Positions 9,768-9,793 of a stretch of DNA of 11,694 nucleotides are shown one piece after another; position 1 is the first letter of the stretch; each line of letters begins with the position of its first letter. Origin of the DNA: a virus. Taxonomy: Duplodnaviria > Heunggongvirae > Uroviricota > Caudoviricetes. Where the stretch lies: IMG/VR virus record IMGVR_UViG_2671180437_000003, positions 1 to 11,694 of that record, one strand, 5' to 3'. Below the pieces are notes generated by a model. The model was not told the origin of the DNA. It saw only the letters and a list, made by a program, of their open reading frames with translations, and ran no database searches. The position numbers and the translations under genes were made by a program.

Positions 9768-9793
9768 AAAACCTGCTGTGGCAGGTTTTTTTT
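9768..9793 (+). terminator. Hairpin plus T-run upstream of the tape measure gene
   Basis: AAAACCTGC (9768-9776), loop TGTG, GCAGGTTTT (9781-9789), T-run to 9793; the tape measure ATG follows at 9810. Confidence 0.55.

Follow-up and report, generated by a model that had tools for sequence, protein, structure and literature searches.

The element at positions 9768–9793 of the window, by which is meant the whole 11,694-nucleotide stretch of viral DNA analysed here, is of the canonical Rho-independent (intrinsic) terminator type and lies on the coding strand of a late operon, such that it would be expected to end transcription between the tail chaperone genes and the gene of the tape measure protein (TMP). 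It is an ordinary terminator of the kind already annotated at the homologous site of phage HK97, here without a moron gene. Intrinsic terminators inside lambdoid late operons have reportedly been annotated since the genome papers on HK97, HK022 and N15. On its own the element matters little, and the proposal that it exists to adjust the dosage of TMP is not to be taken at face value. What merits attention is its setting. In HK97-type tails, the junction between the T and TMP genes is a cargo slot of great richness, bounded by a terminator, and a search for accessory and defence genes of prophages could draw on it. Moreover, conserved hairpins stand before the most highly expressed structural genes, where attenuation is no explanation and where the candidate roles, within Q-controlled operons, are silencing in the lysogen or RNA stability. 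The diversity of the cargo slot and the conservation of terminators before major structural genes are both noteworthy, if unsurprising to specialists.

The hairpin and its genomic setting

The window comes from a lambdoid prophage of the E. coli O157 type, in which it covers the head–tail part of the late operon. All of its genes lie on the plus strand, namely terS, terL, a protease–capsid fusion, portal, head–tail connectors, the tail terminator protein, the major tail protein (with an Ig domain), G, T and TMP. It is 95–96% identical throughout to the Sakai prophage Sp10, and its tail-chaperone/TMP region is 99–100% identical to those of BP-4795, PPyecE_EH1910 and phage 2851-like Stx phages. 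Pfam places the genes that flank the element in the families Phage_TAC_1 (G), Phage_tail_T (T) and TMP_3 with Phage_HK97_TLTM (TMP). Since G ends with a slippery heptamer, A AAA AAG, T is reached only through −1 frameshifting. By analogy with the G/GT precedent of lambda, the ca 300 nt of T frame that lead up to the hairpin would be rarely translated, as most ribosomes would halt at 9451–9453.

The portal region of the window consists of two overlapping open reading frames (4562–5926 and 5923–6822). The same arrangement is found in Sakai Sp10, and the annotation of phage 2851 gives one 860-aa protein. The second of these frames has no Pfam match, and what sets it apart from its counterparts in Sp10 and phage 2851 is how many copies it has of an in-frame tandem repeat of 162 nt, the window being ca 324 nt shorter. 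Between the capsid fusion and portal genes, which are 211 nt apart, there is a further frame of 73 aa (4395–4616), which overlaps the start of the portal; its counterpart in Sp10 is the hypothetical ECs_5438.

The sequence-only reading placed a hairpin and T-run between the chaperone genes and the TMP gene, and it did so correctly, as is borne out by the sequence itself, by the Pfam families of the flanking genes and by conservation of the position in relatives. The gap between the T frame and the TMP gene is 51 nt long and contains just the hairpin and the ribosome-binding site (Table 1). The stem is of 9 bp, in which a 5-bp CCUGC/GCAGG core is extended by four A-U pairs and closed by the loop UGUG; CCTGC is the G-C-containing core within the 5′ arm, and the AAAA of that arm is able to pair with the first U residues of the tail. 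Folded in context, the RNA of this region reaches −12.5 kcal/mol (z = −2.6), a value equalled by 2 of 200 shuffles. The features by which intrinsic terminators are recognised are therefore to hand, in that the stem contains G-C pairs and carries a loop within the range of 3–8 nt, the U-tract stands directly 3′ of the stem, and the whole lies in an intergenic space after a stop codon, on the transcribed strand, which is that of all genes in the window.

Table 1. Coordinates of the terminator-type element, its flanking features and the two further elements of the same type in the window
Feature	Position	Strand	Basis or remark
First element of the same type, GAACCGC/TGCG/GCGGTTT + T7	2374–2395	+	between terL and the protease–major capsid fusion gene (start 2413)
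Second element of the same type, AACCCGC/CGCGT/GCGGGTT + T6	8309–8331	+	between the tail terminator protein gene and the major tail gene (ATG 8348)
Tail assembly chaperone gene G	9079–9453	+	Phage_TAC_1
Slippery heptamer A AAA AAG	9444–9450	+	−1 frameshift site for G-T, at the end of G
T reading frame	9447–9758	+	C-terminal part of G-T; Phage_tail_T
Stop codon TAA of T	9756–9758	+	9 nt before the hairpin
Hairpin 5′ arm, AAAACCTGC	9768–9776	+	sequence read, RNA folding
Tetraloop TGTG	9777–9780	+	sequence read, RNA folding
Hairpin 3′ arm, GCAGGTTTT	9781–9789	+	sequence read, RNA folding
U-tract of the terminator, 8 uninterrupted T	9786–9793	+	sequence read, relatives
Further TTTT beyond the 3′ arm	9790–9793	+	
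TMP Shine-Dalgarno, GGAGAAAGG	9798–9806	+	4 nt past the T-run; GCCYGGAGAAA conserved in relatives
TMP gene, 5′ part, ATG 9810	9810–11694	+	runs off the window; HK97-type family (TMP_3 + Phage_HK97_TLTM)

The element had also been described as the third of its type in the window, a description that holds. A strict detector, which demands a perfect stem with at least three G-C pairs, a ΔG of −9 or lower and a T-rich tail, finds exactly three sites on the plus strand (2374–2391, 8309–8327 and 9769–9788). All three are intergenic in a window of which the intergenic share is 3.6%, and dinucleotide shuffles yield a mean of 0.3 sites under the same detector, reaching three in 2 of 300 cases. A lenient terminator scan is uninformative as a test of significance, as it returns 10 sites with 9.8 expected; it flagged 9768–9793 on the minus strand only, because the stem had absorbed part of the T-run. 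As for the minus strand itself, the element is rejected as the terminator of a gene there, as just four U follow the stem in that direction, and the antisense frame at 9835–10143 is rejected as a user of the hairpin, being broken by 1–8 internal stops in 83 of 97 relatives.

The elements spanning 2374–2412 and 8309–8350 have in common, past the stem, the string TTTTTTATT(T/A)TCAGGAGGC. The succession of hairpin, T-run and perfect Shine-Dalgarno sequence before the capsid and tube genes looks like a repeated cassette.

The T–TMP junction in relatives

Relatives were sampled as 240 loci with the same TMP family, drawn from viral contigs and from bacterial contigs at one genome per species, which reduce to 97 unique junctions. 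Their hosts include E. coli, Klebsiella, Enterobacter, Leclercia, Brenneria, Pseudomonas and others. Over the N-terminal 230 aa, TMP identity is 83–97% among seven aligned representatives. Across the collected loci, identity goes down to 57–59%, with the most distant member (Pseudomonas). A hairpin with a T-rich tail, ending 15–24 nt before the TMP start, is present in 91 of the 97 unique junctions (94%), a frequency that rules out chance, since the detector's background away from this site, on the coding strand, is 0.31 hits per kb. The hairpins comprise 62 distinct sequences with unrelated stems, for example CCGC, CCTGC, CCCGC, GCCCC, GCTCGC, CCTCGC and CCCTC; in other words, the structure is kept despite change in sequence at the homologous site, which is a further mark of an intrinsic terminator. 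Two E. coli alleles differ in the stem in a compensated manner (CCTGC/GCAGG and CCGC/GCGG), and variation among near-identical E. coli copies is confined to the flanks, the spacer and the length of the T-run (7–9), never touching the stem. In one further lineage (L218, L219 and L232) the loop varies over an invariant stem. The T-run has a median length of 7 among the relatives; where the U-tract is conserved, as here, a terminator is indicated and not simply a hairpin in the RNA. The E. coli form with a compact junction occurs in 1245 of 5426 complete E. coli genomes, at up to seven copies per genome. The comparison of junctions shows a terminator-type structure that selection holds in position between T and TMP.

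A dispersed repeat or mobile palindrome was considered and rejected, as the exact 22-mer of the element is found in 33 viral contigs and in 32 of these it has the same T–TMP context. The sole other context is that of an unrelated myovirus-like contig (L252, at ca 12949–13030), where the hairpin lies between the end of a baseplate-spike-like gene and the start of a sheath-like gene; there too it precedes GCCTGGAGAAA, and the ribosome-binding site is similar to that of the window. With terminators numbering in the millions, this match could have arisen by chance, or it could be an exchanged cassette of terminator and ribosome-binding site. From the elements at 2374 and 8309 and from this contig, cassettes of hairpin, T-run and ribosome-binding site look exchangeable between late-gene junctions.

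The same junction is a slot for cargo. A T homologue can be located in 93 junctions, which form the base for the counts that follow. In 18 of these the junction is compact, or empty, with a T–TMP spacing of 11–52 nt, and the window is of this type; the other 75 carry 113–2026 nt of extra DNA. The GC content of the cargo is 0.32–0.56 (mostly 0.32–0.47), in every case below that of its flanks, which is mostly 0.50–0.55. The cargo falls into 24 families, mostly of small lipoproteins or membrane proteins encoded on the plus strand, and includes gp15-like genes, Cor-like superinfection exclusion genes, superinfection-exclusion-like lipoproteins, the phrog_890 lipoprotein, an HNH endonuclease, an IS5-like transposase and antirepressor-like genes. 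One cargo encodes a 484-aa lipoprotein with no family hits. There is normally one terminator per slot, at its TMP end, and a hairpin just after T is found in only 7 of the 75 cargo-bearing junctions. No terminator precedes TMP in the three unique junctions with cargo on the minus strand, all of one cargo family; in the reversed-cargo locus L222 the hairpin sits by the T stop, at the 3′ end of the reversed gene. As a control of orientation, these three junctions of a single cargo family suggest a link between moron and terminator.

Morons carry their own promoter and terminator, and are expressed from repressed prophages (reviewed in PMC3594210). In the window, no extra gene between genes that are adjacent in relatives is found in the 51-nt gap, and no sigma-70-like site appears on the plus strand across the whole window. 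The terminator that would close a moron at its 3′ end is the sole moron component present, and in relatives it tracks the orientation of the cargo. In other words, the slot of the window is empty and its terminator stands alone. A terminator at a compact junction is seen in four lineages or more, and 17 of the 18 empty-slot junctions have kept the element. The window's own terminator belongs to a family, AACCTGC...GCAGGTT, that is found in this empty slot, in L053 behind a lipoprotein gene, and in L187 and L225; L053 and the window also have ca 18 nt upstream of the hairpin in common. The hairpins of empty slots are weaker than those associated with cargo, with medians of −8.9 and −12.2 kcal/mol respectively, and in one empty-slot relative (L087) the T-run has decayed, both of which are compatible with relaxed selection.

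It is conceivable, if somewhat improbable, that HK97-type TMP genes carry the terminator as a resident feature at their 5′ end, and that this terminator is itself the reason why the junction became a hypervariable moron slot, such that the empty slot would be a 'landing pad' rather than a scar. Any promoter-bearing gene that landed between T and the terminator would then be insulated automatically, as a result of which insertions would be tolerated and would accumulate. The 24 cargo families, together with the occurrence of one terminator family both with different cargo and with none, are the observations that can be cited for this.

The element before the major tail gene offers a comparison within the same operons. 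A hairpin with a T-run at that position (8309–8331 in the window) is conserved in 73 of 79 unique junctions of the relatives (L001–L243), ending 18–24 nt before the start codon in 72 of the 73 and 52 nt before it in the other. The gap there is of 47–71 nt (once 8 nt), and cargo is never present. A hairpin directly before the gene of the most abundant tail protein is explained neither by attenuation nor by morons.

Role of the element within the late operon

During lytic growth, Q renders RNA polymerase largely resistant to terminator signals. In Sakai Sp10, the gene of the Q antiterminator (ECs_1958) lies outside the region matched by the window, on the same strand and ca 17.5 kb upstream of the element, whose Sp10 counterpart is at ca 1,957,998–1,958,025 of NC_002695.2. 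A location downstream of Q and pR′, in the same direction, is thus evident in this prophage, at 95–96% identity, and is not visible in the window itself. Eight terminator-like hairpins, each intergenic and on the coding strand, are spread over the Sp10 late operon from Q onward (10642–28018 of L246), and they include the window's three. They stand after Q, where the hairpin is tR′-like, after the tRNAs, around a TciA-like moron, before the holin, between terL and the capsid gene, before the tube gene and before TMP. In Stx and other lambdoid phages, late transcription starts at pR′ and needs Q-mediated read-through of terminators (PMC7547250). The same paper uses public Term-seq, dRNA-seq and total RNA-seq data sets of strain Sakai.

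The reading that we prefer, and to which we give roughly an even chance, is that the element is an intrinsic terminator inside a Q-antiterminated late operon, which would stop unmodified RNA polymerase and be read through in lytic growth, and which would double as the terminator of the cargo slot whenever this is filled. RNA polymerase without the Q modification would terminate at 9768–9793. The transcription so stopped would be any that arises inside the operon in a lysogen and, in relatives, that of the morons, such that TMP and the distal tail genes would be kept silent outside late transcription. In lytic growth, Q-modified polymerase coming from pR′ would read through, and residual termination, or protection of the 3′ end of the tube–chaperone message, would be a secondary effect. 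Several considerations count against such a barrier. No promoter that would need blocking is known or predicted upstream of the hairpin in the empty-slot window; unmodified transcription could be kept low as it is, by Rho at the rarely translated T frame; and the conserved, cargo-free hairpin before the major tail gene means that hairpins of this sort exist for reasons unrelated to morons as well.

The rationale originally offered for the element was one of dosage, in which reduced read-through into the TMP gene would account for the low amount of its product. Of this proposal the terminator-type hairpin is confirmed, and the purpose is neither shown nor favoured by the comparisons. Put as a partial attenuator at which some polymerases stop even in lytic growth, such that TMP and the distal tail genes are supplied with less mRNA than those of the tube and chaperones and the stoichiometry is set in part by the element, the idea is rather unlikely. 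The location suits it, with V, G and T on one side and the low-copy TMP on the other, a functioning terminator would have just such a stem and U8 tract, and the retention of the element in nearly all empty slots, and in so many E. coli genomes, is as would be expected. However, lambda, N15, phi80 and HK022 face the same stoichiometry problem and manage without the element, as do the three unique relatives with reversed cargo. The window's other two such elements stand before the major capsid and major tail genes, whose products are the most needed and where attenuation would be counter-productive, and the near-identical operon of Sp10 lies downstream of a Q antiterminator gene. The dosage rationale is in this respect weakly supported, even if the hairpin may still exert a modest attenuating or RNA-stabilising effect.

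An action purely at the level of RNA, quite unlikely in our estimation, would have the hairpin shield the 3′ end of the tube–chaperone message from exonucleases after endonucleolytic processing and, together with the hairpin before the tube gene, bracket and stabilise the message that is needed most. Bracketing of this sort is indeed seen, in the window by the hairpins before V (8309) and after T (9768), and elsewhere around gene E of lambda, around the major tail gene of HK022 and HK97, and around the capsid gene and after the tail gene of N15. A stabilising hairpin has no need of a U-tract, yet the T-run is conserved; moreover, in the relatives that bear cargo the hairpin follows the cargo rather than T. 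Little credence is given to a functionless relic, that is, a terminator whose moron gene was deleted or never arrived and which persists for lack of time to decay. The weakness of empty-slot hairpins, the decayed T-run of L087 and the terminator and upstream nucleotides common to the window and the cargo-bearing L053 all speak for it. Stems are nevertheless intact in all E. coli empty-slot variants, where substitutions are found only in the flanks and spacer apart from changes in T-run length; the stem difference between the two alleles is compensated, the stem is invariant under a variable loop in the lineage of L218, L219 and L232, and empty slots with a terminator recur in several lineages. 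Given these intact stems, a pure relic seems unlikely.

A long U-tail after a hairpin is also the Hfq-binding module. It is scarcely credible all the same that the element is the terminator of an Hfq-binding small regulatory RNA, 3′-derived from the T message, or that its U-rich stretch enhances translation of TMP, a role for which the T-run, 4 nt from the Shine-Dalgarno sequence, is suitably placed. The prophages of EHEC do encode many Hfq-bound sRNAs (PMC4104026, PMC13502914), which favours the former. Against it, Rfam at gathering thresholds gives no match over the whole window, no promoter-like site lies upstream, and the Hfq-CRAC sRNA tables have no entry at the coordinates of the Sp10 T–TMP junction, this last being a weak negative. 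The attributes of an Hfq-dependent sRNA such as HnrS (EcOnc10-12), namely a discrete transcript with its own start or processing and bound by Hfq, are absent from the evidence at this site. Identity with HnrS, the multicopy late-region sRNA of Sp9, Sp10 and Sp12, is rejected, as HnrS maps upstream of terS and outside the window. In Sp10 it is EcOnc11, at Sakai 1946819–1946867 (ca 16820–16868 of L246), between the Rz-like gene and ECs_1967, and its position is just upstream of the region that matches the start of the window. In a k-mer search, no stretch of 9 nt or longer in the window was complementary to the ribosome-binding region of hha, the target site of HnrS, and an RNAduplex scan returned only long interrupted duplexes, which are uninformative.

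Comparison with known systems

The putative-terminator annotation of HK97 is said to go back to Juhala et al. 2000. At 8398–8422 of NC_002167 it reads 'regulatory, terminator, putative', at the homologous position right before the homologous TMP gene, whose N-terminal 230 aa are 84% identical to those of the window's TMP. As in the window, a hairpin is followed by T8 and then by the ribosome-binding site, whereas the stem is a different one (GACCCGC.../...GCGGGTT). The principal difference lies in what precedes it: in HK97 the terminator stands behind gene 15, a moron gene of 62 aa ('moron product' Gp15) that is expressed in lysogens and is located between the chaperone and TMP genes, whereas in the window there is no gene between T and the hairpin (GenBank annotation and PMC3594210, on which the statements about HK97 are based).

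Phages with lambda-type tails have no terminator at this junction. The T and TMP genes of lambda, N15 and phi80 overlap, and HK022, also without a terminator, has a gap of 19 nt. Elsewhere in the late operon the likeness is closer. Putative rho-independent terminators are annotated on either side of the capsid gene and after the tail gene in N15, on either side of the major tail gene in HK97, and within the tail region in phi80; an element of similar kind precedes the capsid gene in both lambda and N15. The elements at 2374 and 8309 of the window are of the same class as these hairpins of N15, HK97 and phi80, which occupy short gaps of a co-directional, antiterminated late operon; in the lambda-type-tail phages that share the class, the T–TMP junction, where the genes overlap, has none. 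The hairpins that bracket a major capsid or tail gene lie at 6099–6116 and 7163–7180 in lambda (L245) and at 1720–1736 and 2265–2278 in HK022 (L244), and in N15 (L280) they are annotated stem–loops.

With regard to mechanism, the role proposed here is that of tR′ in Stx and lambdoid phages, an intrinsic terminator which halts unmodified polymerase and which Q-modified polymerase bypasses (PMC7547250). tR′ differs in lying directly after pR′, where it acts as a regulatory switch and gives rise to the sRNA StxS, whereas the element of the window lies ca 17 kb further downstream and is not known to yield a transcript of its own. Further afield, and by analogy only, since both the elements and the antitermination machinery are unrelated, two papers describe the same concept in Tn916 and the conjugative elements of Gram-positive bacteria, in which multiple terminators inside the operon keep it silent unless an antiterminator is active (PMC11658703, PMC8191782).
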